This document shows, one piece after another, positions 712-19,413 of a stretch of 55,722 nt of DNA. This stretch comes from Calditrichaceae bacterium. Its GTDB lineage: Bacteria > Calditrichota > Calditrichia > Calditrichales > JBFXGD01. The stretch is taken from the NCBI GenBank assembly GCA_050178385.1, contig JBFXGD010000003.1, positions 1 to 55,722 on the forward strand, in the 5' to 3' direction. A program made the position numbers and the translations under genes. Numbering within the stretch: the stretch's first letter is position 1; the number at the start of each line of letters is the position of its first letter. The notes beneath the pieces were generated by a model. It was not told the DNA's origin and did no database searches. It saw only the letters and a list, made by a program, of their open reading frames with translations.

Positions 712-3159
712 ATGCCATTTGCAGAAGTTGTTTTTAACTTACCGCTAAATCATTCCTTCACTTACGGGATTCCGGATGAACTTGACCGGTTAACGCCCGG
801 TATGCGTGTCCTTGCTCCTTTTGGAAAGCGCAATATCACCGGGGTTGTAACTGCAGTAACAACTAAATCAGCATACAGTTCGGTGAAGGATATTATTGAC
901 ATCCTGGATGATAAGCCACTTATTTCAGAACGCATGCTCGATCTGCTGAAATGGATTTCCGATTATTATATTTCCAGCCTGGGGCAAACAGTCCAGATGG
1001 CATTGCCGAAAGGAATTGATACGGAAGATAAGGAATACATCGATATTGCAGATGTGAATTTTGAAGAAAAATTATCAGAGCGCCAAAGGGATTTGTATCT
1101 TTTAATCGGTTCCAATCCAGGCCAATCTAAAGATTATTATCGGAAAAAAAATGGACAGGGTTCCTTTTACCATAATTTGCGAATTCTTGAAAAGAAAGGT
1201 CTCATAAAACGCGCCATTGAAAGAAAGCATCAAAGGGTCGGAATATTAACCAGAAAGTTTGTGACAATTCCGGATGATTATGAAAAAATAAAAACAAATT
1301 TTGATGATTTCCTGAAATATACCAGGCGTCGTCCGGAAGTAGATGATTACATGCTGAATAATTCCGGCAAAAATATATTGATGTCTGATTTTCTAAAGAA
1401 AACAGGTATGGCGACCGGAACACTTCAAAAAATGAAGAACCTCGGTATATGTGAAGTTGTTGAGATGCAGGTTGAACGCACACCGGAATTTGAGTATCGG
1501 GAAGGAATCAAGGATATCGTCCTTACCGATGAGCAGGAAAATGCAGTCCGGCAAGCGGCGTTGCAAATGGAAACTGGTCAGTTCGCCACATTTTTACTGC
1601 ACGGAATTACGGGAAGCGGGAAAACACAAGTCTATATTGAGGTGTTAAAAAAAGTTATAGCTGCCGGACAAACCGCAATCATCTTAATACCGGAAATATC
1701 ACTGACACCCCAAACCGTAAGCCGGTTCAAAAATGTTTTTTCGGATCAGATCGCCGTGTTTCATAGTAAAATGTCAGTCGGAGAGCGATTTGACGCGTGG
1801 ATGGCCTGCTATGAAGACCGTGTCAAAATAGTAGTCGGGCCGCGCTCGGCTTTATTTACACCTTTAAAAAATATTGGACTTATTGTAGTCGATGAAGAGC
1901 ACGAAACGAGTTATAAACAGAGTGATATCACGCCGCGCTATCATGCAAGGGATGTGGCGATTTACTGGGCGAGAATGAATCAGGCGATAATAATGCTTGG
2001 GTCCGCGACGCCGAGTATGGAATCTTATTTTAATGTATCAAAAAATAAGTTTAAGCTGCTACAGATCCGGAACCGCGTCGAAAATATACAATTACCCGAA
2101 GTGCATATTGTGGATATGCGTCACAAAAGAGGGGCGCAGGATAGAGAAACCAATCTTTTTTCCAGGGTTCTATTGGACAAAATAGAAGAAAAACTGCAAA
2201 AAAAAGAGCAAATTTTAATTTTACAGAACAAACGAGGATATTCCTCATTTCTGCAGTGTACTGAATGTGGGTTCATCGCGGCTTGTCCAAATTGCGAAGT
2301 AAGCCTCACTTATCATTCCTACACCGAGTCTCTTCAATGCCATTTATGCGGTTATCATCATGCTTCATATACGGATTGTCCTTCCTGTGGTGGAGAGCAG
2401 ATAAAATACAAGGGAATCGGCACCCAAAGAATACAGCAGGAGCTTCAAAAGCTATATCCTGAAGTGAGAATTCTGCGTATGGATCAGGATACGACACGTG
2501 GCAAAAATATGCACGATACCATATTAAAGTCATTTGCCGACGGTGACGCCGATATTTTACTCGGGACGCAGATGATCGCAAAAGGACTCGATTTTGCCAA
2601 TGTCACACTGGTAGGCGTCATATCAGCGGATGTAGGACTTTCTCTGCCTGATTTCAGGGCATCCGAAAGAATTTTCCACCTGCTCACACAGGTTTCAGGC
2701 CGGTCGGGCAGAGGGAAAAAGCCGGGTGAAGTGGTTATTCAAACTTATGTTTACAGTCATTATGCGATTCAGCATGCCCGCAGTCACGATTATTTAGGGT
2801 TTTATATGGAAGAATTAGAGCATCGTAAAAATTTTAAGTATCCTCCATACTATAAGATCATTCAAATCCTTGTTTCAGCCGAAAAAATGAATGAGGCAAT
2901 CGATACAGCCCGGAAAATTGCCGTACGGCTCCGCAGAGATGCCCGCGGAAATTGTGAAGTGATCGGACCGGCTCCGTCGGTCATCCCTAAAGTTAACAAA
3001 CTTTACAGATGGCAGGTCAATATTAAGTTAAATCCACAAACAGATCCATCGGGAAACCGGACAAAAAAAATTTTACAAAAACTGATGACCCCGTTTTATA
3101 ATAACAGACAATCGGGTATTCAGGTGGTCGTTGATGTTGATCCGACCTTGCTCGGCTGA
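712..3159 (+). CDS. priA: Primosomal protein N' (replication restart helicase)
   Basis: Walker A GITGSGKT, DEEH, LGSATPS, four CxxC pairs, GTQMIAKGLDF, QVSGRSGR. Confidence 0.97.
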   Translation: MPFAEVVFNLPLNHSFTYGIPDELDRLTPGMRVLAPFGKRNITGVVTAVTTKSAYSSVKDIIDILDDKPLISERMLDLLKWISDYYISSLGQTVQMALPKGIDTEDKEYIDIADVNFEEKLSERQRDLYLLIGSNPGQSKDYYRKKNGQGSFYHNLRILEKKGLIKRAIERKHQRVGILTRKFVTIPDDYEKIKTNFDDFLKYTRRRPEVDDYMLNNSGKNILMSDFLKKTGMATGTLQKMKNLGICEVVEMQVERTPEFEYREGIKDIVLTDEQENAVRQAALQMETGQFATFLLHGITGSGKTQVYIEVLKKVIAAGQTAIILIPEISLTPQTVSRFKNVFSDQIAVFHSKMSVGERFDAWMACYEDRVKIVVGPRSALFTPLKNIGLIVVDEEHETSYKQSDITPRYHARDVAIYWARMNQAIIMLGSATPSMESYFNVSKNKFKLLQIRNRVENIQLPEVHIVDMRHKRGAQDRETNLFSRVLLDKIEEKLQKKEQILILQNKRGYSSFLQCTECGFIAACPNCEVSLTYHSYTESLQCHLCGYHHASYTDCPSCGGEQIKYKGIGTQRIQQELQKLYPEVRILRMDQDTTRGKNMHDTILKSFADGDADILLGTQMIAKGLDFANVTLVGVISADVGLSLPDFRASERIFHLLTQVSGRSGRGKKPGEVVIQTYVYSHYAIQHARSHDYLGFYMEELEHRKNFKYPPYYKIIQILVSAEKMNEAIDTARKIAVRLRRDARGNCEVIGPAPSVIPKVNKLYRWQVNIKLNPQTDPSGNRTKKILQKLMTPFYNNRQSGIQVVVDVDPTLLG

Positions 3160-3168
3160 ATAAAACAG

Positions 3169-3197
3169 TTGCAATCCAACGATGAAATCTTTAAAAT
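3169..3197 (+). promoter_or_regulatory. Putative sigma70 promoter of the kinase-mgl operon
   Basis: TTGCAA-N17-TAAAAT in the priA/kinase intergenic gap. Confidence 0.55.
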
Positions 3198-3269
3198 AAA
3201 GCTTTAAATTCCTTAAAAAAATAGACATATATCCCATAGATTTTTAGAGTCAGCAATAAAGATAGCAGA

Positions 3270-4517
3270 ATGAGCAAACGTTTTGAGAGTAAAAAAGAAG
3301 CTGCTTCCCGAATAAATAAAATTCTCGCGGAATTGGAAGGTAATCAGCCGAATGGTGAAGTACACGACACTCTCAAAAAAAATTATGATATATTGCTGAA
3401 GCGGTACGGTGATCTGGAAAAGATTTTCCGGTTTCATAAAGGAATCATTCAAAATATATCCAGCGGGATATTCACGATAGATATGAATGGATATCTGACG
3501 TTCCTGAACAGGGCCGCGCTTGATATACTTGAATACAGCAGTGATGAAATTCTCGGTAAAAAGGTTGAAGTTCTTTTTGAAGACGAAAATCAGATTAATC
3601 GCATCATCAGGCAGATTGTGGATGAGAAGGCCTTGTTTGAGAGTAAAGAGGCGGAGCTTGTTTCGGGTAATGGGAAAATGATCCCGATTGGATTTAGCAC
3701 GACGTTGTTAAAACAATCGGATGACCATACCTTTGACGGCATAATCTTCATCTTTCGCGATATTACGTACATTACCACTTTACGTAAACAAATTGAGCGC
3801 ATGGATCGACTGGCGACTCTCGGTGAACTGGCGGCGGGAATTGCTCATGAAATACGAAATCCGCTCGCCGGAATTAAAGCTTCCGCTCAGGTGCTCGAAG
3901 ATAGTTATAATGAAGATGATTTCAGAACACAGCTGGTGACGAGAATTGTAAAGGAAATTGACAGAAGTAATGAATTATTGAAAAGATTTTTTAACTTTGC
4001 AAGGCCAAATAAACCAAAACAGGATTTTCATGATATTGAAAATATCATTGACGGTGTTTATCTTTTAATGGCAAGCAGATTTAAAAAACAAAAAATTCGA
4101 TACAGTACCAATTTTTCTGAAATTAAACACAAAATTTTTGCTGATGAAAGTCAGATTGAACAGGTCATACTGAATTTATTTATCAATGCTGCCGAAGCCA
4201 TGCCAAATGGCGGCGATATTCTGGTAGAAGTCGGTGAAACCGATGGAATCCGGTTAAGTGAAAATCAGCATGGACATTCTGTTGTATATGTCAGGATTAA
4301 AGATTCCGGGCCAGGTATCCCGGTAGAGAAACATGAAAAGATATTTAATCCGTTCTATACGACAAAGGCGGATGGTGTGGGACTCGGTCTGTCGATTTCA
4401 ACAAGATTACTTGAAGAAAATAATGGCAAGATCGAAATCCAATCCCGGCAGGGTGAAGGAGCGGTTTTTAGTATTTATCTGCCGGTAGTGATCAATAATA
4501 AAACAGAACAGGTTTAA
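3270..4517 (+). CDS. Cytoplasmic PAS-domain sensor histidine kinase (NtrB/AtoS-like)
   Basis: PAS (ISSGIFTIDMNG...NRAA...FRDIT), H-box AHEIRNPL, N-box NLFINA, DSGPGI, FYTTK, GVGLGLSI; no hydrophobic TM stretch. Confidence 0.92.
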   Translation: MSKRFESKKEAASRINKILAELEGNQPNGEVHDTLKKNYDILLKRYGDLEKIFRFHKGIIQNISSGIFTIDMNGYLTFLNRAALDILEYSSDEILGKKVEVLFEDENQINRIIRQIVDEKALFESKEAELVSGNGKMIPIGFSTTLLKQSDDHTFDGIIFIFRDITYITTLRKQIERMDRLATLGELAAGIAHEIRNPLAGIKASAQVLEDSYNEDDFRTQLVTRIVKEIDRSNELLKRFFNFARPNKPKQDFHDIENIIDGVYLLMASRFKKQKIRYSTNFSEIKHKIFADESQIEQVILNLFINAAEAMPNGGDILVEVGETDGIRLSENQHGHSVVYVRIKDSGPGIPVEKHEKIFNPFYTTKADGVGLGLSISTRLLEENNGKIEIQSRQGEGAVFSIYLPVVINNKTEQV

Positions 4518-4519
4518 AC

Positions 4520-4885
4520 ATGGCAAAAAGGCTGCTCATTGTTGATGATGAAGAGACTTTAACGTTTAGTCTTTACCAGAGTTTTATACTATCAGACAAA
4601 GACTATGAAGTAATCACCGCCAATTCGGGTGATGAGGCCCTCACCAAAATTAATGAAAATCCGTTCGATCTGATTATAACTGATATTCTAATGCCGGGGA
4701 TGAGCGGAATCGATTTGCTGAAAAGAGTCAAACAGGATTTTCCTAAGACTGAGATTGTGATTATGACGGCTTATGGTTCTAATGACAGACGTGATGAAGT
4801 ATTGAAGCTTGGCGCAAGATTTTACATAGAAAAACCATTTGAAATGAAAGAATTCAAAAAAATCGTACTAGAAATTCTGGGATAA
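4520..4885 (+). CDS. Single-domain response regulator (CheY-like receiver)
   Basis: LIVDDE, ITDILMPG (phospho-Asp), MTAYG, EKPF; 121 aa with no output domain. Confidence 0.93.
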   Translation: MAKRLLIVDDEETLTFSLYQSFILSDKDYEVITANSGDEALTKINENPFDLIITDILMPGMSGIDLLKRVKQDFPKTEIVIMTAYGSNDRRDEVLKLGARFYIEKPFEMKEFKKIVLEILG

Positions 4886-4886
4886 A

Positions 4887-5531
4887 ATGGCATTAGTAGG
4901 AAACTTAAAGGATTTAAAACTTCCGAGTTTAATCCAATTAAATTGCATGGAACGCAACACGGCAAAGTTGACAATTGAGCGTGGCGGTAAGTTTGGCTTT
5001 ATATACTTTGAAAACGGACAGGTCGTTCACGCGGAATTTGAGCCGGAGATAGGTGAAAAAGCAGTTTACAAGCTGTTGACACTGTATGACGGGACTTTTA
5101 AAGTTGAAAGTGATGTACACGCTCCTGTAAAAACGATTAAAACAAGCTGGAACAGTTTATTACTTGAAGGTCTGCATCAGCTTGATAACGCCGACGAAGC
5201 CCCTGAAAATAGTTTCCACCGCTTGTTTGAGAGGCTGCTTACGGTAAAAGGCGTTCAGTCTGTAAAAATGATTGAACGGGATGGAGCACTGATCGCGAAA
5301 AGTGAGGAAGAGTCCGGTCTTGATGATGACGCGCTTTATGCGTTTTCAATGCTGGAAGCCGGAAAAATTGCTGATATCCTGAGCGTGGCCGAACCGGAAT
5401 TCGTGAGTGTTCTTGTAGGTTCCCTGAGATATGTTATTACAGCATATAATCAATTGTTAATCATTATAATTTTAAGCGATAAAACTAAGCTGGATGTCAT
5501 CTTACCACTGATAAAACAGGCAATGGGTTAA
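4887..5531 (+). CDS. DUF4388/PATAN domain fused to a roadblock-like C-terminal domain
   Basis: N-term LVGNLKDLKLPSLIQL...GFIYFENGQVVHA is typical DUF4388; C-term LLTVKGVQSVKMIERDGALIA resembles the start of roadblock/LC7. Confidence 0.8.
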   Translation: MALVGNLKDLKLPSLIQLNCMERNTAKLTIERGGKFGFIYFENGQVVHAEFEPEIGEKAVYKLLTLYDGTFKVESDVHAPVKTIKTSWNSLLLEGLHQLDNADEAPENSFHRLFERLLTVKGVQSVKMIERDGALIAKSEEESGLDDDALYAFSMLEAGKIADILSVAEPEFVSVLVGSLRYVITAYNQLLIIIILSDKTKLDVILPLIKQAMG

Positions 5532-6544
5532 TGAACACAAATGCACTAGTCATAACGGGGGAACCGCAGCATAAGAATCTGGCAACGCAGTATACACATA
5601 TGTGGCTGCTAATCAAGGATCTCAAGGAATCCCGTTTCTCAGGGTATTTAAAACTGGAATTTTGGGGCTATGAAGGTTTTTTGATTTTTGACACGGGTAA
5701 TATTGTTCAGGCATATGAGCAGAAAGGAAAGCAGATCGGTTCCGGGATTCAGGCCTTATTAGGCATCTATAACCGATTTAGGGAAAAAGACGGATCCATA
5801 AGCACTTTTTTAGTCGATTACGAGTTAGTCCCTTTTCTTCTTGCCATGTTTCAGAATAAAATACTTGATGAGAAAAAAAATCTGAATAGTGATAATCTGG
5901 AAAAGTATATCCAGGAATCATCAAAGAAAACCGATTACGGATTTATAAATATCATTTTCGGTGATCAACAGGCGCGCGCATCGATCTATCTGATGAACGG
6001 AGGGGTAGCTGCTTCGGTTTTGAATAATAATGCGGGTAAACAGGTTTTTGAAAAAGGCATGGCCCGTTTATTTAAAAAAATCCTACAGATAGCAGAAACA
6101 ATAGACACCAATATATCACTTGAAAGTTGCGATGCGCTGCGTTCTTATGAAGAAAGTCAAAAATTTTCCGAGTTGCTCGAGTTGCTTGAAGTATCAGAAA
6201 TTATGCTGGAGCTAAAAAATCGCATTGTGAACGCGATTGCTCCATTAGATGAACATGAAAACATGGAAGCTCTTTTCTCCGGGCTTTGGGAAAAAAGCTG
6301 TAAATCAATAGGTGTGGATGCCGTCCATTATGCGCAAAATCAATTCACAGGCCTCGATTCCATCACAAAAATGAAGTTTGGGGCATTGATTACGAATGTT
6401 TTTACTCAACTTAAGCCATTGTTTGACGATAAATCATCAAAGCACTCCTTTATGGATTTACTGATACATGGTTTTGTGGAGGAGTATTCTGAAAAAATTG
6501 ATAAAATACATTTAAGAGAATATTTCAGCACAGAGATTGCCTGA
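5531..6544 (+). CDS. Hypothetical protein with two PATAN/DUF2226-like repeats
   Basis: LKESRFSGYLKL...EGFLIFDTGNIVQA and a degenerate copy KTDYGFINI...ASIYLMNGGVAAS; helical C-terminus. Confidence 0.55.
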   Translation: MNTNALVITGEPQHKNLATQYTHMWLLIKDLKESRFSGYLKLEFWGYEGFLIFDTGNIVQAYEQKGKQIGSGIQALLGIYNRFREKDGSISTFLVDYELVPFLLAMFQNKILDEKKNLNSDNLEKYIQESSKKTDYGFINIIFGDQQARASIYLMNGGVAASVLNNNAGKQVFEKGMARLFKKILQIAETIDTNISLESCDALRSYEESQKFSELLELLEVSEIMLELKNRIVNAIAPLDEHENMEALFSGLWEKSCKSIGVDAVHYAQNQFTGLDSITKMKFGALITNVFTQLKPLFDDKSSKHSFMDLLIHGFVEEYSEKIDKIHLREYFSTEIA

Positions 6545-6589
6545 TAATTCAGGTATGGTTATGATCTGCAGAAATTAAGGAATGATCAG

Positions 6590-7027
6590 ATGGCTGACAG
6601 GTGGCTGCAGGAAATTTTAAATATTGATGGCGTCCGGGGCGTATACATCGCTTCAGGACGGGGAAATGTCATTGAAAAATTAGGGCTCGACGAAAAGGAT
6701 GCAGTTCTTGAAAAGTTAACGGTGCACATTCTTAGGATTCTTTCCGGACACTATTTACGCAATTTGACTATCACTGAAATTGAATTTTACTGGCAAGACC
6801 AGTATATCATATGCAGGCATACAAACAACATGCTGCTGGTAATTCTTTGCAAAACTCCGAAGGTTTTGTCTTTGCTGCGAATTACATTGAATGTGGCATT
6901 GGCAAACCTCCTTGAAGATAAGAAATTGATAAAACTGATAAAGGATCAGACCGCGGATAAAACTTTTCATATTAACAAAGGGGACTTGGATGAAAGCGAA
7001 GTCCGTCTGATAACCAAACTGAAATAA
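6590..7027 (+). CDS. Roadblock/LC7-like protein
   Basis: LQEILNIDGVRGVYIASGRGNVI start and LLVILC...LSLLRITLN end match the roadblock pattern. Confidence 0.65.
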   Translation: MADRWLQEILNIDGVRGVYIASGRGNVIEKLGLDEKDAVLEKLTVHILRILSGHYLRNLTITEIEFYWQDQYIICRHTNNMLLVILCKTPKVLSLLRITLNVALANLLEDKKLIKLIKDQTADKTFHINKGDLDESEVRLITKLK

Positions 7028-7060
7028 AATATTTCAGTACTATTAAAATGGATTTTAAAG

Positions 7061-7552
7061 TTGGATAAAAAAGATTATAAAAACATAATTCCTCATCCGC
7101 ATGTCGTATTCGGACTTACCGGTTCAAAATCTCCGGCCGAAGTTACATTGCGGTCCGCTGAATGGGCGGTAATAACCCAGGTTGACGGAAACAAAAGCGT
7201 CGATGATATCGCGCAGGTTCTTGCGTTGACGGAAGAAGAGGCAATTGGTTTATTTATCGGATTATATGAAAAAGGCCTGATTGAAATACAATCGACTGAA
7301 AAACCACTGACAAAATTAGTAAATCATGAATTCTTTGAAAATCTGGAAAAGGAATTAATGGCGGTTATCGGACCGGTAGCACCGTTTCTGATTGAAGATA
7401 CTCTTCTTGAAATGGGAGAGGACAAAGATAAATTCATGGTGGAGCGTATTCCGGATTTGATCGAAACAATCAGCGATGAAATTAATGATGACGGAAAAAA
7501 AATAAAATTTCAGAGTGTGATGTTAAACTATATCAAAAAAGGACTTGAGTAA
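7061..7552 (+). CDS. Winged-helix-like protein with C-terminal helical 'IGPxA' domain
   Basis: EWAVITQVDGNKSVDDIAQVL...LYEKGLIEI wHTH pattern; LEKELMAVIGPVAPFLIED; TTG start. Confidence 0.6.
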   Translation: MDKKDYKNIIPHPHVVFGLTGSKSPAEVTLRSAEWAVITQVDGNKSVDDIAQVLALTEEEAIGLFIGLYEKGLIEIQSTEKPLTKLVNHEFFENLEKELMAVIGPVAPFLIEDTLLEMGEDKDKFMVERIPDLIETISDEINDDGKKIKFQSVMLNYIKKGLE

Positions 7553-8303
7553 AGTGAAATTTATCAGCTTAAAATGGAAAATAAGTGGTGTTTTGATCAT
7601 CAGTAATTTATTGCTGGGACTGCTTATCGTTTTTATTGTAAATAAAACCGTGAGCGAAAGTCTTGAGAAAGAATTAATTGAACGCGGAAGAACAATCGCT
7701 GTTAACCTGTCAAGCTTTTCCGCGGAACTCATCCTGGCACAAGATGAGATCGGTTTAAAGCAGCTGATCACAGGAGATTTAAATTTTGAAAGTGTCGAAT
7801 ACATATTGATTCATGACAGCGAAGGACGTATCTTAGCAGATACATATAACGGGCAGGTTCCGGATGTATTGAAAGGAAAATCGTTTGAAGGCCGAACGAT
7901 TGACGAAAAGCCCGAGCTAATTCAATTGCAGGACAATGACTTATCGTGTTACGATATAACGGGTCCGGTTCAGGATGGTTATTTGGGTTATATTCGGGTC
8001 GGGATGAAAAAGGCTTATGTGGACGAAACGGTCAGGACGACCAATTTCATTGTGATTTTAACCATATTGAGTATAACATTTATAGGAATTGTAATTGTAA
8101 TATTTCTTGCAAATCAGATAATTAAACCTATTTTATATCTGACAAAAAAAGCTGACGATATCAGCCAGGGAAATCTAGATGAGAAAATCTTTGTTAAAAC
8201 AAATGACGAAATACAAAGCCTGGGTGAGGCGTTAGAAAGATTGCGGGAAAGTGTAAAAATAGCTTTAGATCGACTCAAAAAACGTCAAACCTTGCGCATA
8301 TAA
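7545..8303 (+). CDS. Two-TM membrane sensor with extracytoplasmic domain and HAMP, no output domain
   Basis: Two hydrophobic segments flank a soluble domain; HAMP IIKPILYLTKKADDISQGNLD...DEIQSLGEALERL; protein ends about 18 aa later. Confidence 0.85.
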   Translation: MSKVKFISLKWKISGVLIISNLLLGLLIVFIVNKTVSESLEKELIERGRTIAVNLSSFSAELILAQDEIGLKQLITGDLNFESVEYILIHDSEGRILADTYNGQVPDVLKGKSFEGRTIDEKPELIQLQDNDLSCYDITGPVQDGYLGYIRVGMKKAYVDETVRTTNFIVILTILSITFIGIVIVIFLANQIIKPILYLTKKADDISQGNLDEKIFVKTNDEIQSLGEALERLRESVKIALDRLKKRQTLRI

Positions 8304-8322
8304 ATAAAGTGAGGGAAATTTT

Positions 8323-8835
8323 ATGGTACAAATAAGAAAACTCAAAGATGGAAGCCGGCAAGTCATATTAAACGGTAAACAATATGACGGTATCACAAAG
8401 GTATTATCTGAGCTTGCAAATAAAACAAAAGCATCAGCGATACTATTTGCGGATATGAGCGGTCAGTTGATAAGCCAGCGTGGCAACACGGAGGATATGA
8501 ATACAACCGTGCTTTCCGCCCTTGCTGCAAGTGATTTTGCCGCTACATCCGAAATGGCGAAATTAGTGGGAGAGGAAGCGAAATTTAAACTTCTCTTTCA
8601 TGAAGGTGAGAAAAGAAATGTATATCTTTCCAATGTCGGCGATAACTTTTTCCTGGTTGTCGTATTCGATGTAAGCGTGACATTGGGTTTGATTCGAATT
8701 TATACCAAAAAAGCGATTGAAGATCTCATCTCAATGCTGGAAGATCAGTCCGGAGATGAACCTGAAGATTCAAATATTATCGATTCAGATTTCAGCACCC
8801 TCCTGGGTGACGCTTTGGATGATACTTTTAAATAA
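8323..8835 (+). CDS. mglB: MglB-family roadblock protein (GAP for MglA)
   Basis: ADMSGQLI, LSALAASDFAATSEMAKLVGE, LFHEGE, VTLGLIR; acidic C-terminal helix; directly upstream of mglA. Confidence 0.9.
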   Translation: MVQIRKLKDGSRQVILNGKQYDGITKVLSELANKTKASAILFADMSGQLISQRGNTEDMNTTVLSALAASDFAATSEMAKLVGEEAKFKLLFHEGEKRNVYLSNVGDNFFLVVVFDVSVTLGLIRIYTKKAIEDLISMLEDQSGDEPEDSNIIDSDFSTLLGDALDDTFK

Positions 8836-8870
8836 TAGGTCATAAACGGTTTAAGTCGCGAGGATGGAGA

Positions 8871-9455
8871 ATGTTTATAAATTGGGCTTTACAGGAAATA
8901 AATTTAAAAATCGTCTATTACGGTCCGGGAATGAGTGGAAAAACAACGAATCTTGAGTATATACATACTAAGCTCGATCCGTCGCTTACAGGGGAACTTG
9001 TCTCATTAAAAACAAAAGAAGACCGCACCATATTCTTTGATTTTATGCAGATTGAAGTCGGCCGGATCAAAGGGAAAAAACCAAAATTCAATTTATACAC
9101 CGTTCCGGGACAGGTCTATTACGCTTCGAGCCGTAAAGTAATTTTAAACGGGGTTGATGGAATCGTATTCGTTGCTGACTCACAGCCGCATCGGATGGAA
9201 GCCAATATTGAGACACTGCTGGATCTTGAAAGCAATATAAAGCAGGACGGGCAGACACTTGAGAAATTCCCCTGGGTAATACAATATAATAAGCGTGATT
9301 TGCCCGGTGTGGAGTCGGTTGATGTGTTGCAAAAAAGACTGAACTTCTTCAATGTGCCACATTTTGAAGGTGTAGCGGTAAAAGGTGACGGAGTATTCAA
9401 CACACTGAAATCAGTGATTAATCTGGTTGTACAGAACGTCCAAACGCAGCTCTAA
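8871..9455 (+). CDS. mglA: MglA-family small Ras-like GTPase
   Basis: KIVYYGPGMSGKTTNL (G1), DRTIFFDF, LYTVPGQ (G3), QYNKRDL (G4). Confidence 0.95.
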   Translation: MFINWALQEINLKIVYYGPGMSGKTTNLEYIHTKLDPSLTGELVSLKTKEDRTIFFDFMQIEVGRIKGKKPKFNLYTVPGQVYYASSRKVILNGVDGIVFVADSQPHRMEANIETLLDLESNIKQDGQTLEKFPWVIQYNKRDLPGVESVDVLQKRLNFFNVPHFEGVAVKGDGVFNTLKSVINLVVQNVQTQL

Positions 9456-9495
9456 AAACAGTGCATGAATTGGATTGATATTATGCAAATTTCAT

Positions 9496-9530
9496 AAACC
9501 TTCTCTATTGATAAGAGAAGGTTTTTTTTT
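9496..9530 (+). terminator. Intrinsic terminator after mglA
   Basis: AAACCTTCTCT / AGAGAAGGTTT stem plus T-run. Confidence 0.85.
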
Positions 9531-9572: not shown

Positions 9573-10868
9573 TTGACCCGCGATCAGAAGAAAAAAGAAA
9601 AAAAAGAAATATTTGCATGGACATTGTACGATTTTGCAAATACATCTTTTAGTGTCATAGTTGTGACGGTTGTTTATGCTGTATATTTCAAACAGTATAT
9701 CGTTTCCGGACAAACCATATCATTCTTTGGCATTGAGCGGAATCCGGGAGATTTATACTGGGGGCTCGGCGGCGCAATTTCGATGTTTATAGTTGCTGTG
9801 ACTTCACCATTGCTTGGGGCTATTGCCGATTTTAACAGCCGGAAAAAGTATTTTTTATTTGTTTACTCCATGTTCTGCATCGCCAGCACCCTTATGTTAT
9901 CCATCCTGGAACCGGGAATGGTTTGGCAGGGATTGTTTTTGTTTGTTGCCGGTAATATCGGTTTTGAAGGGGCGATCGTTTTTTATAACGGATTCTTACC
10001 TCAGATTTCCAGATCTGACAATATCGGCAAAATATCAGGCTACGGATTTGCTTTTGGATATATCGGCTCTTTAATATCTCTGCTCATCGCACTGCCTTAT
10101 GCAAACCGGGCTTTTGTTGCAGATGATTTATCCCTTATGCGGCCGACATTTCTCTGGGCCGGACTTTTTTTCCTCGTTTTTTCCACACCATTTTATTTAT
10201 TGGTCAATGAAAGAAAAAACAAAATAGCGGTTCATGTTGATAGTTATGTAAGGGAAGGCTATAAAAGACTCCGGAAAACGATAAAGATGATTCGGGAATT
10301 TCCTGAGATAGTAAAGTTCCTGGTCGCGTATTTTATTTATATTGACGGAGTTAATACCGTAATTTACTTCGGTGGGATCTTTGCAAAAGATACACTTGGT
10401 TTTTCAATGGTTGAAATTATTACATTTTTTGCGATAATTCAATTTTCTGCGATTTCCGGGGCATATGTTTTTGGTTTTCTTACTGATAAACTTGGTCCGA
10501 AGAAGACTATCAATCTCACATTGCTTATGTGGATGGTGGTCTCCATAGGGGCTTTTTTCTCGTATGATCAACTCTCATTTTATGCGGTTGGATTGATAGC
10601 GGGGATAGCAATGGGGTCGTCACAATCTGCCAGCCGGGCTCTGATGGGGATTCTGATCCCTGAAGGGATGGAAGCGGAATTTTATGGATTTTATGCGTTG
10701 ACTGGAAAATTTTCATCCATTCTGGGGCCTCTTCTTTTTGGCGTTATTTCCACTACTACAGGAAGCCAGAGAATAGCTGTTCTTTCAGTCCTGTTGTTTT
10801 TTGTAACAGGTTTTGCCTTGTTTCAGAGAGTCGATGAAAAAGTTACATATAAAAAAGTTGTAATTTGA
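9573..10868 (+). CDS. MFS transporter (UMF1/Atg22-like)
   Basis: AWTLYDFANTSF, SPLLGAIAD, GKISGYGFAFGYIG, SQSASRAL; about 12 hydrophobic segments. Confidence 0.85.
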   Translation: MTRDQKKKEKKEIFAWTLYDFANTSFSVIVVTVVYAVYFKQYIVSGQTISFFGIERNPGDLYWGLGGAISMFIVAVTSPLLGAIADFNSRKKYFLFVYSMFCIASTLMLSILEPGMVWQGLFLFVAGNIGFEGAIVFYNGFLPQISRSDNIGKISGYGFAFGYIGSLISLLIALPYANRAFVADDLSLMRPTFLWAGLFFLVFSTPFYLLVNERKNKIAVHVDSYVREGYKRLRKTIKMIREFPEIVKFLVAYFIYIDGVNTVIYFGGIFAKDTLGFSMVEIITFFAIIQFSAISGAYVFGFLTDKLGPKKTINLTLLMWMVVSIGAFFSYDQLSFYAVGLIAGIAMGSSQSASRALMGILIPEGMEAEFYGFYALTGKFSSILGPLLFGVISTTTGSQRIAVLSVLLFFVTGFALFQRVDEKVTYKKVVI

Positions 10869-18783: not shown

Positions 18784-19413
18784 ATGAAGGCATTGAAAAA
18801 AAATCCTGAAGCTGACTTGAGACTAAAATATAGAAAAGCCCTGGAAGCCGCAATTGCAATATCATTGTTAATACTGATATTGGTGTTTTATGCATTTAAG
18901 AAATTCGAAACCGGGATGAGCCTGCCGGAACAACCGGACATCATCATCGAAACGATCGAAATTCCTAAAACCCAGCAGGTACAGAAACCACCACCTCCTT
19001 CAAGACCATCTATACCGGTGGAATCTGAAGATGAAGATTTGCTGGACGATGTAACAATTGCGGAAACAGAGGTAAACTTTGAACGATTTGAAGAATTGCC
19101 TCCTCCTCCTCCACCTGAAGAAGATGAAGTTTACGAATTCTTCGCCGTTTCTGAGAAACCGGTGCTGGTTCACAAAGAGACACCGCAGTTTCCTGATTTG
19201 GCTCGTAAAGCCGGTATTGAGGGAATTGTAGTCATTACCGTAACAATCAGCAAAACAGGTGTTGTTCAGGATGCGAGAGTTTTTAAATCGATACCTATGT
19301 TAGACGAGGCAGCTTTGGAAGCGGCTAAGAAGTGTACCTTCAAACCCGCGAAGCAAAGAGATAAATTTGTAAAAGTTAAAATGAACATACCTTTCCAGTT
19401 CAAACTTAAATAA
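18784..19413 (+). CDS. tonB: Energy transducer TonB
   Basis: N-terminal TM, poly-Pro linker, FPDLARKAGIEG...LDEAALEA...FKPA C-terminal domain. Confidence 0.9.
   Translation: MKALKKNPEADLRLKYRKALEAAIAISLLILILVFYAFKKFETGMSLPEQPDIIIETIEIPKTQQVQKPPPPSRPSIPVESEDEDLLDDVTIAETEVNFERFEELPPPPPPEEDEVYEFFAVSEKPVLVHKETPQFPDLARKAGIEGIVVITVTISKTGVVQDARVFKSIPMLDEAALEAAKKCTFKPAKQRDKFVKVKMNIPFQFKLK

Follow-up and report, generated by a model that had tools for sequence, protein, structure and literature searches.

In Myxococcus, the MglA polarity switch takes its input from a chemosensory relay encoded elsewhere, and we know of no membrane receptor that feeds a Group 1 MglA directly. Af1503 of Archaeoglobus fulgidus is a model HAMP protein, and its output has been an open question since the family was described. 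Here we analysed a stretch of 55,722 nucleotides (nt) from a Calditrichaceae bacterium (contig JBFXGD010000003.1; hereafter the window), in which nine co-oriented open reading frames on the + strand (3270–9455) form an operon, labelled g1–g9 in order, with g8 being mglB and g9 being mglA. Caldithrix abyssi is a cultured member of the same phylum, the Calditrichota. With slightly better than even confidence, we favour the reading that this is a conserved Myxococcus-type MglA/MglB operon, in which the output-less receptor g7 would dock the STAC/DUF8082 adaptor g6 and thereby feed the MglA polarity switch by way of PATAN and roadblock proteins; the switch would serve more than one client.

Both halves of this arrangement have described relatives. 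Group 1 MglA proteins are defined by an arginine finger and the motif TVPGQ, and conservon GTPases form Group 2 with GTPGQ; the neighbourhoods of Group 1 mglA are reported to be highly variable, PATAN genes being present now and then and MglB genes in some cases numbering two (Wuichet and Sogaard-Andersen, PMC4316618). Links of PATAN and extra roadblock genes to Group 1 mglA are thus known in outline. Af1503-like receptors are described as lacking an effector and as translationally coupled to STAC genes with the motif LGPx(x)A (PMC4834066). In a further system, a Ser/Thr kinase provides two four-helix bundles to which an output-less Cache–transmembrane (TM)–HAMP receptor binds at ~90 nM, and helices starting with IGPLAR and IGPIAR contact the two HAMP subunits in a cryo-electron microscopy structure at 3.47 Å (bioRxiv 10.64898/2026.05.25.727664). 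The features of the present locus are:

3169..3197, + strand: candidate sigma-70 promoter, unsupported; 9 of 12 consensus matches
3270..4517, + strand: g1, soluble PAS histidine kinase, 415 amino acids (aa); Pfam PAS, HisKA and HATPase_c, no TM segment
4520..4885, + strand: g2, stand-alone receiver, predicted phosphorylatable, 121 aa; Response_reg E 6e-28
4887..5531, + strand: g3, PATAN (DUF4388) plus roadblock domain, 214 aa; DUF4388 E 6e-23
5531..6544, + strand: g4, optional PATAN-like protein, 337 aa; two alpha/beta repeats and a helical tail in the model
6590..7027, + strand: g5, divergent roadblock whose C-terminal helix is conserved, 145 aa; Robl_LC7 E 0.018
7061..7552, + strand: g6, winged helix followed by a STAC/DUF8082 four-helix domain that bears the GPxxA motif, predicted HAMP-docking adaptor, 163 aa; model confidence (pLDDT) 90.7
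7545..8303, + strand: g7, TM–sCache-like–TM–HAMP receptor with no output domain, 249–252 aa; two TM segments, Pfam HAMP, weak sCache
8323..8835, + strand: g8, MglB, predicted GTPase-activating protein of MglA, 170 aa; PDB MglB E 1e-23 over residues 11–169, Pfam Roadblock
8871..9455, + strand: g9, Group 1 MglA small GTPase, 194 aa; PDB MglA E 2e-68, small-GTPase Pfam families
9496..9530, + strand: intrinsic terminator; 11-bp stem plus U-run (hairpin 9496–9524)

For comparison we used the best 80 of 117 MglA relatives in a genome collection, chosen by MglA similarity. Their MglA identity is 81–98%, and their titles are mostly Calditrichota, with a minority labelled 'Bacteroidota bacterium'.

The receptor g7 contains two TM segments, an extracellular sensor and, as the only portion in the cytosol, a HAMP domain, an organization that it shares with Af1503-like receptors. 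Archaeoglobus Af1503 is the best PDB match of a 41-sequence g7 profile (E 5e-14). The post-HAMP helix of g7 is nearly identical to that of Af1503; the sensor domains did not align. This Af1503-type tail motif is present in 40 of the 41 g7 sequences, with the chain ending 3–9 residues later. The CxxCH haem motif is absent from g7 and from the alignment rows examined. An earlier note on this DNA, made from the letters alone, had correctly called g7 a HAMP sensor, and it missed the tail, which together with the docking domain of g6 supplies the mechanism.

The g6 gene directly precedes g7, with a gap of at most 5 nt in 55 of 73 loci. Our model of g6 comprises two domains, of which the C-terminal one (residues 88–157; g6-C) finds its best structural match in Af1502, the STAC protein whose gene neighbours that of Af1503 (5a1q; Z 7.5, root-mean-square deviation 2.6, 68/68 residues), and Foldseek retrieves the same Af1502 chain (TM-score 0.76 by target, E 0.65). 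The g6 sequence profile aligns its IGPVA with IGPIA of Af1502 (E 0.07), and the GPxxA motif, conserved in 62 of 64 g6 sequences, lies between helices 1 and 2, as does LGPx(x)A in STAC domains. The clusters to which g6 belongs are named DUF8082 in the Atlas and reported from Thermodesulfobacteriota and Chloroflexota; a Pfam scan of g6 gave nothing useful. Taken together, fold, profile, motif and gene coupling agree in predicting that g6-C is a STAC domain, and by analogy with the solved receptor–kinase complex g7 likely recruits g6. The earlier description of g6 as a winged helix-turn-helix (wHTH) protein thus holds for its N-terminus and overlooked the C-terminal STAC/DUF8082 domain. In genome G000, g6 is the sole match of the docking domain and g7 is the sole one of 10 HAMP matches that stops at the tail, from which we infer a one-to-one g6–g7 pair.

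Beyond this operon, the g6-C profile matches 1407 cluster representatives at E ≤0.001. Scanning 42 longer matches revealed Ser/Thr, tyrosine and histidine kinases as well as kinase–PilM fusions, and several of these proteins carry GPxA modules in tandem; when 10 distant matches were looked up by cluster, hardly any had a name. The docking domain occurs in tandem on Wzc-type tyrosine kinases (P0126, P0160, P0176), kinase–PilM fusions (P0222, P0267) and HisKA_3 kinases (P0214, P0253). On an unrelated contig (L127:5882-8272), a Ser/Thr kinase whose C-terminus is a GPxA docking domain stands tail to tail with a CxxCH output-less HAMP receptor with a similar tail, as in the CHH receptor–kinase system.

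From g1 to g9, the intergenic gaps are 2, 1, −1, 45, 33, −8, 19 and 35 nt, and with the alternative g7 start (GTG 7554) the g6–g7 gap becomes +1; the nine co-oriented genes with gaps below 50 nt are therefore as claimed in the earlier note. So is the 3' terminator, whose folding z is −5.2 against 200 shuffles. A terminator-like site is kept 3' of mglA in 44 of 75 relatives and appears after internal genes in 0–5 of 64–77. By comparison, the promoter proposed at 3169–3197 carries no evidential weight, since the window holds 34 sites of such quality and shuffled sequences hold 23.7 ± 4.7. The priA gene lies 110 nt 5' of g1; the interval contains no terminator in the window and one in just 1 of 33 relatives, and transcription may therefore begin further upstream. 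On the other side, 117 nt 3' of mglA and behind the terminator, an ATG22-like major facilitator superfamily (MFS) transporter gene (9573–10868) follows; it stands 3' of mglA in 41 of 71 loci.

Af1503-like receptors are enriched near transport genes (PMC4834066), and a STAC domain packs against the SLC5 transporter in CbrA (bioRxiv 10.64898/2026.03.10.710862). Together with the MFS gene and with the receptor and docking domain that occur without MglA in L127, these data raise the possibility of two units at one locus, in which a transporter is under the control of the g7–g6 pair, in line with the proposal for Af1503/Af1502, with mglBA as no more than a long-standing neighbour. However, the terminator separates mglA from the MFS gene, which is absent in 30 of 71 loci, whereas a terminator-like site between g7 and mglB is found in 0 of 77; furthermore, PATAN and roadblock domains occur as fusion partners of the docking domain. 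We regard two such separate units as quite improbable.

These fusions connect the adaptor with the proteins encoded upstream of it. Among the best 150 g6-C matches, 84 carry a g6-type wHTH; PATAN domains are present in 23 and g5-type roadblocks in 5. In a second lineage, a small separate group (18 genomes in the phylum search; MglA matched in 18 of 20 genomes), g6 is a PATAN–wHTH–STAC protein in 10 of 11 loci, the eleventh being cut by a contig end. The fusions therefore link g3/g4, g5 and g6 together. A metagenome scan with the roadblock–STAC fusion P0221 returned 2 loci, neither with MglA.

The upstream proteins themselves are PATAN and roadblock proteins. The C-terminus of g3 aligns with g5 at 92.5% (hhalign), roadblock chains top the PDB lists of both, and the g5 profile matches PDB roadblock chains with a best E of 1e-4; consequently, the operon holds three roadblock domains together with MglB, and the earlier assignments of g3 (DUF4388 plus roadblock) and g5 (roadblock) are borne out. 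Tuning of small GTPases by roadblock partners is seen repeatedly (PMC9481161). The 'double PATAN' label for g4 is partly sustained: 18 of 20 members match DUF4388, the nearest Atlas cluster is DUF2226/PatA_N and the model shows two alpha/beta repeats, yet the window copy falls below the cut-off and its halves barely align with each other (hhalign 2.6%), the profile alignments of each half with PATAN also being weak. A fold search with g4 gave no clear match (best Z 6.8), and hhalign showed no likeness of the g4 C-terminus to STAC. Elsewhere in genome G000, which contains 8 DUF4388 matches, further PATAN proteins comprise two receiver–PATAN proteins and one tandem pair (L093:13738-14469, L094:5197-6288, L095:75-2620).

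The GTPase pair at the 3' end is of the Group 1 type. Residues R52, T77 and Q81 of MglA are invariant in 81/81 sequences, the NKxD motif is present in 80/81 (one gapped), and the intrinsic arginine finger adjoins the G2 threonine (R52–T53 in 81/81), with TVPGQ as the G3 motif. MglB adjoins MglA, in keeping with the coupled mglB within four genes that marks Group 1, and carries a C-terminal extension as in Myxococcus MglB; its NCBIfam MglB score is 81.6 bits, below the cut-off of 200. The MglB and MglA identities given earlier are borne out by the PDB matches. An NCBIfam scan returned no match for g3–g6; RomR, RomX, RomY and MglC were not directly searched.

The earlier note also called the operon conservon-like, and this does not survive the comparison. 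In conservons the GTPase belongs to Group 2, with GTPGQ and no arginine finger (PMC4316618), whereas TVPGQ and R52 are invariant here. CvnA is a membrane histidine kinase with a HAMP domain and LPxR at its C-terminus; by comparison, g1 shows no TM segment, HAMP domain or C-terminal LPxR, and g7 shows no kinase domain. CvnC, which we take to be the DUF742 protein, has no counterpart among the g6 proteins, of which 1 of 43 matches DUF742 with E 0.017. The operon is therefore not a conservon, given that the MglA motifs are those of Group 1 and that kinase g1 is soluble and separable.

The N-terminal domain of g6 bears on a related possibility, that the operon is a conservon-like regulator of gene expression in which the GTPase controls the release of a DNA-binding g6 winged helix from the membrane receptor. 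Conservons control transcription (PMC13343842), the g6 N-terminus is a winged helix that matches many transcription regulators at Z 6–6.7, and retention of the operon without pili or flagella, described below, would fit a non-motility output. Nevertheless, its best match is the wHTH of Npr2/NPRL2 from SEA/GATOR1 (Z 9.7), which, together with enzyme-attached wHTH domains, outranks the DNA-binding regulators; the same wHTH sits within the PATAN–wHTH–STAC fusions, and MglA is Group 1 rather than Group 2. We accord such a transcriptional role little probability, and retain the reading of g6 as a docking adaptor for the GTPase switch.

Conservation of the gene order supports a linkage of g6 and g7 with mglBA. 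In all 55 long loci (those of the 80 with at least 6 kb upstream of mglA), g2, g3, g5, g6, g7, g8 and g9 are retained in order; by comparison, g1 is present in 48/55, g4 in 17/55 and priA in front in 28/55. The remaining 25 loci end at contig edges and are concordant over their reach, except L081. In the phylum as a whole, MglA is matched in 84 of 86 Calditrichota genomes. The expectation that upstream genes co-occur with mglAB is thereby borne out for g2, g3, g5, g6 and g7. The 'self-contained nine-gene system' of the earlier note is weakened: the core order holds, and g4 is mostly missing, g1 is missing from some loci and g1 is separable in the second lineage. Because the loci are kin, these counts show inheritance under constraint, not independent assembly. 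A plasmid search found one mglBA pair (Deinococcus ficus), with upstream genes not recognisable from the annotation, and one stand-alone HAMP protein near transporter-binding genes; viral contigs gave just four weak partial matches.

Kinship also invites the view that there is no functional system beyond mglBA and that the genes upstream of it, inherited as a block, have roles that are unrelated. The adjacency of priA and g1 is ancient as well, and the upstream genes diverge faster, with median identities of 29–60% against 81–86% for mglB (81%) and mglA (86%). Against this, the block keeps its order despite the loss of g4 and despite being broken on the 5' side at two distinct places, genes overlap, and domain fusions among operon parts recur. 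We find an inherited block of unrelated genes very improbable.

A second input would come from the receiver g2, in which D55, T83 and K105 are present in 66/66 sequences. The earlier calls of a PAS kinase (PAS–HisKA–HATPase in Pfam) and a stand-alone receiver (Response_reg only) are correct. In the second lineage, the g1 orthologue (48–49% identical) lies 3' of priA and far from the operon in 4 of 4 genomes fetched, and we thus consider g1 peripheral and g2 core. The priA–g1 pair (window 712–4517; L102:5050-8931, L103:7466-11327, L104:7155-11112, L105:4283-8140) is kept in Calditrichota and in the second lineage, also where g1 is no longer part of the MglA operon. Genome G000 has a Chp-like cluster whose CheA hybrid measures 1563 aa, and CheW is found in 17 of 17 genomes tested. 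A chemosensory cluster comprises ParA, a receiver, CheW, a methyl-accepting chemotaxis protein, a giant CheA hybrid with multiple Hpt domains and a beta-helix/TonB_C protein (L100:909-4980, L101:4161-10396, L111:5316-16617), and is retained in G040, which is without pili and flagella.

Type IV pili are the first candidate client of the switch. Genome G000 holds a complete pilus operon (L092:4734-16359, G000:C17) encoding PilB with a C-terminal receiver, PilC, pilins, PilO, secretin and PilT, and PilT is over the cut-off in 57 of 71 Calditrichota genomes. In Synechocystis, PATAN domains bind PilB and PilC (10.1101/2021.06.11.447907), and in 2 of the 42 scanned matches the docking domain is fused to kinase–PilM proteins. 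These data are consistent with a polarity module dedicated to type IV pili, in which PATAN proteins g3 and g4 would act as MglA effectors on PilB/PilC and every input would serve twitching. Four genomes of one Calditrichota family speak against it: G040, G042, G044 and G047 (91–93% complete; loci L016, L017, L024 and L026) show no pilus ATPase, secretin or FlhA, and keep the operon, at 89–91% MglA identity, as well as chemosensory genes. In the second lineage, the pilus ATPase is absent from 8 of 18 MglA-positive genomes, and the 2 MglA-negative genomes have it. Type IV pili therefore cannot be the only client, and we consider a dedicated pilus module unlikely. Other motors were considered as well. 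The flagellum was rejected as a client because FlhA has no match in G000 (94% complete) or G038, although an FlhA-family match is found in 51 of 71 genomes of the phylum; Bacteroidota-type gliding was rejected because GldM is over the cut-off in 0 of 17 genomes.

A cluster resembling the Agl–Glt core may serve more widely. In genome G000 (L121:86-10299, G000:C24), it contains a tetratricopeptide-repeat (TPR) protein, a giant TPR protein, a small open reading frame, TolQ, two ExbD proteins and a GltG-like protein, directly before aspS, and over the scanned extent it also occurs in the pilus-less G044 and in G086 (cluster loci L121, L124 and L125). For the GltG-like protein, the score exceeds the AgmX/PglI-domain cut-off and falls short of the GltG equivalog cut-off; the protein is matched in 68 of 71 Calditrichota and 19 of 20 second-lineage genomes. 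The cluster is a candidate client and no more, as any core gene would co-occur as well. Separately, the window itself contains at 19198–19404 a weak match to an AgmX/PglI/TonB-like C-terminal domain (E 4e-4, below the cut-off), which stands at a similar distance from mglA in G006, G040 and G044.

The adaptor reading can be laid out as a pathway. First, g7 is a TM–sCache-like–TM–HAMP receptor ending in an Af1503-type helix, and g6 a wHTH protein with a GPxxA four-helix domain, encoded by abutting genes. Second, following the solved precedent, the g7 HAMP dimer would bind two GPxxA helices from two g6 molecules, and ligand would alter the complex. Third, as the domain fusions suggest, g6 would be linked to PATAN (g3, g4) and roadblock (g3 C-terminus, g5) partners that position or tune MglB. 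Fourth, as is known for the family, MglB would stimulate GTP hydrolysis by MglA, and MglA-GTP would mark a pole. Fifth, phosphorylated g2 may provide the second input, originating either in g1 or in the Chp-like chemosensory kinase. Sixth, the clients would be motors of the pole or the envelope: type IV pili wherever a genome has them, and the Agl–Glt-like TolQ/ExbD/GltG complex more widely. The earlier suggestion of membrane input to the GTPase is plausible.

Several observations weigh against this pathway. The scores that join g6 to STAC are each modest, since a Z of 7.5 is common for helical bundles and the Foldseek E is 0.65, and the Af1502 profile match ranks behind a dynein light chain (E 0.025). 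No physical link of g6 or g5 to MglB or MglA was seen, and the third, fifth and sixth steps rest on gene order and fusions. The 55/55 gene order is partly plain inheritance among close kin; priA too is adjacent in 28/55. In L081 (36-3676), a reduced operon of g2, g4, g7, g8 and g9 keeps g7 in the absence of g3, g5 and g6. The four pilus-less genomes count here as well, as does the second-lineage distribution of the pilus ATPase; in two of the four pilus-less genomes, g6 is shortened (L017) or g7 is split (L024), for which sequencing error or decay is possible. As to the surface motor, GltJ-type GYF_2 was found in 1 of 17 genomes, the GltG-like gene persists where MglA was not found (G043, G055, G091 and G092), and the Agl–Glt core alone has been judged insufficient for gliding (Luciano et al., PMC3169522).

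A bolder version of the pathway, which we put forward tentatively and hold to be unlikely as a whole, would be a bacterial receptor-coupled small-GTPase pathway in which no enzyme stands between the receptor and the switch. An Af1503-type receptor would recruit the wHTH–STAC adaptor and roadblock heterodimers, echoing Rag–Ragulator–GATOR1, an echo suggested by NPRL2 being the best match of the g6 winged helix. The switch would steer an unrecognised Agl–Glt-type surface motor of Calditrichota, including in lineages without pili and flagella. STAC, DUF8082 and the CHH-kinase module would form a single HAMP-docking family, by which receptors without an output are connected to kinases or to GTPase switches.

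A literature search found no paper on this architecture, supplementary tables being outside its reach. Group 1 MglA/MglB next to PATAN genes is already known, as are GPxA partners of output-less HAMP receptors; new are the union of both halves and the proposal that STAC, DUF8082 and the CHH-kinase module are equivalent, which joins three separately named domains. The operon ties the question of MglA input and that of Af1503 output to one small, soluble interface, between the HAMP-tail of g7 and g6-C. It is likely that contacts between proteins carry external signals to the GTPase, which would thereby steer cell polarity. Furthermore, the survival of the operon genes after loss of pili and flagella points to a further MglA output.

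Comparison with the closest described systems places the operon as follows. Like Af1503/Af1502, it encodes an output-less TM–sensor–TM–HAMP receptor with a post-HAMP helix and a coupled gene for a GPx(x)A four-helix protein. This pair differs in that it is bacterial, that its STAC domain is fused to a winged helix (and to PATAN in the second lineage), that the STAC gene precedes the receptor and that the pair is set beside a small GTPase instead of a transporter; the similarity to Af1503 covers the HAMP domain and tail only. The CHH receptor–kinase complex of Pseudomonas azotoformans shares the output-less Cache–TM–HAMP receptor and an IGPxA four-helix partner (bioRxiv 10.64898/2026.05.25.727664). 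By comparison, g7 is without CxxCH, each g6 chain carries one module instead of a tandem pair, and the partner is a non-catalytic adaptor, the operon containing no Ser/Thr kinase with tandem GPxA modules. The CHH preprint makes no mention of STAC, Af1503, DUF8082, MglA or GTPase. With the actinobacterial conservons (cvnABCD), the operon has in common a sensor, a roadblock protein, a small helical protein and a GTPase in one conserved operon. This is distinct in that its GTPase is of another group and catalytic mechanism, that a membrane histidine kinase and a DUF742 protein are absent and that receiver and PATAN proteins are present. Finally, MglA and MglB of Myxococcus xanthus and Thermus thermophilus are clear homologues of g9 and g8 and share the Group 1 catalytic motifs. 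Whereas Group 1 neighbourhoods are described as variable (PMC4316618), the Calditrichota order is fixed across the phylum and takes in a membrane receptor, a STAC adaptor and a receiver as well as three roadblock domains.

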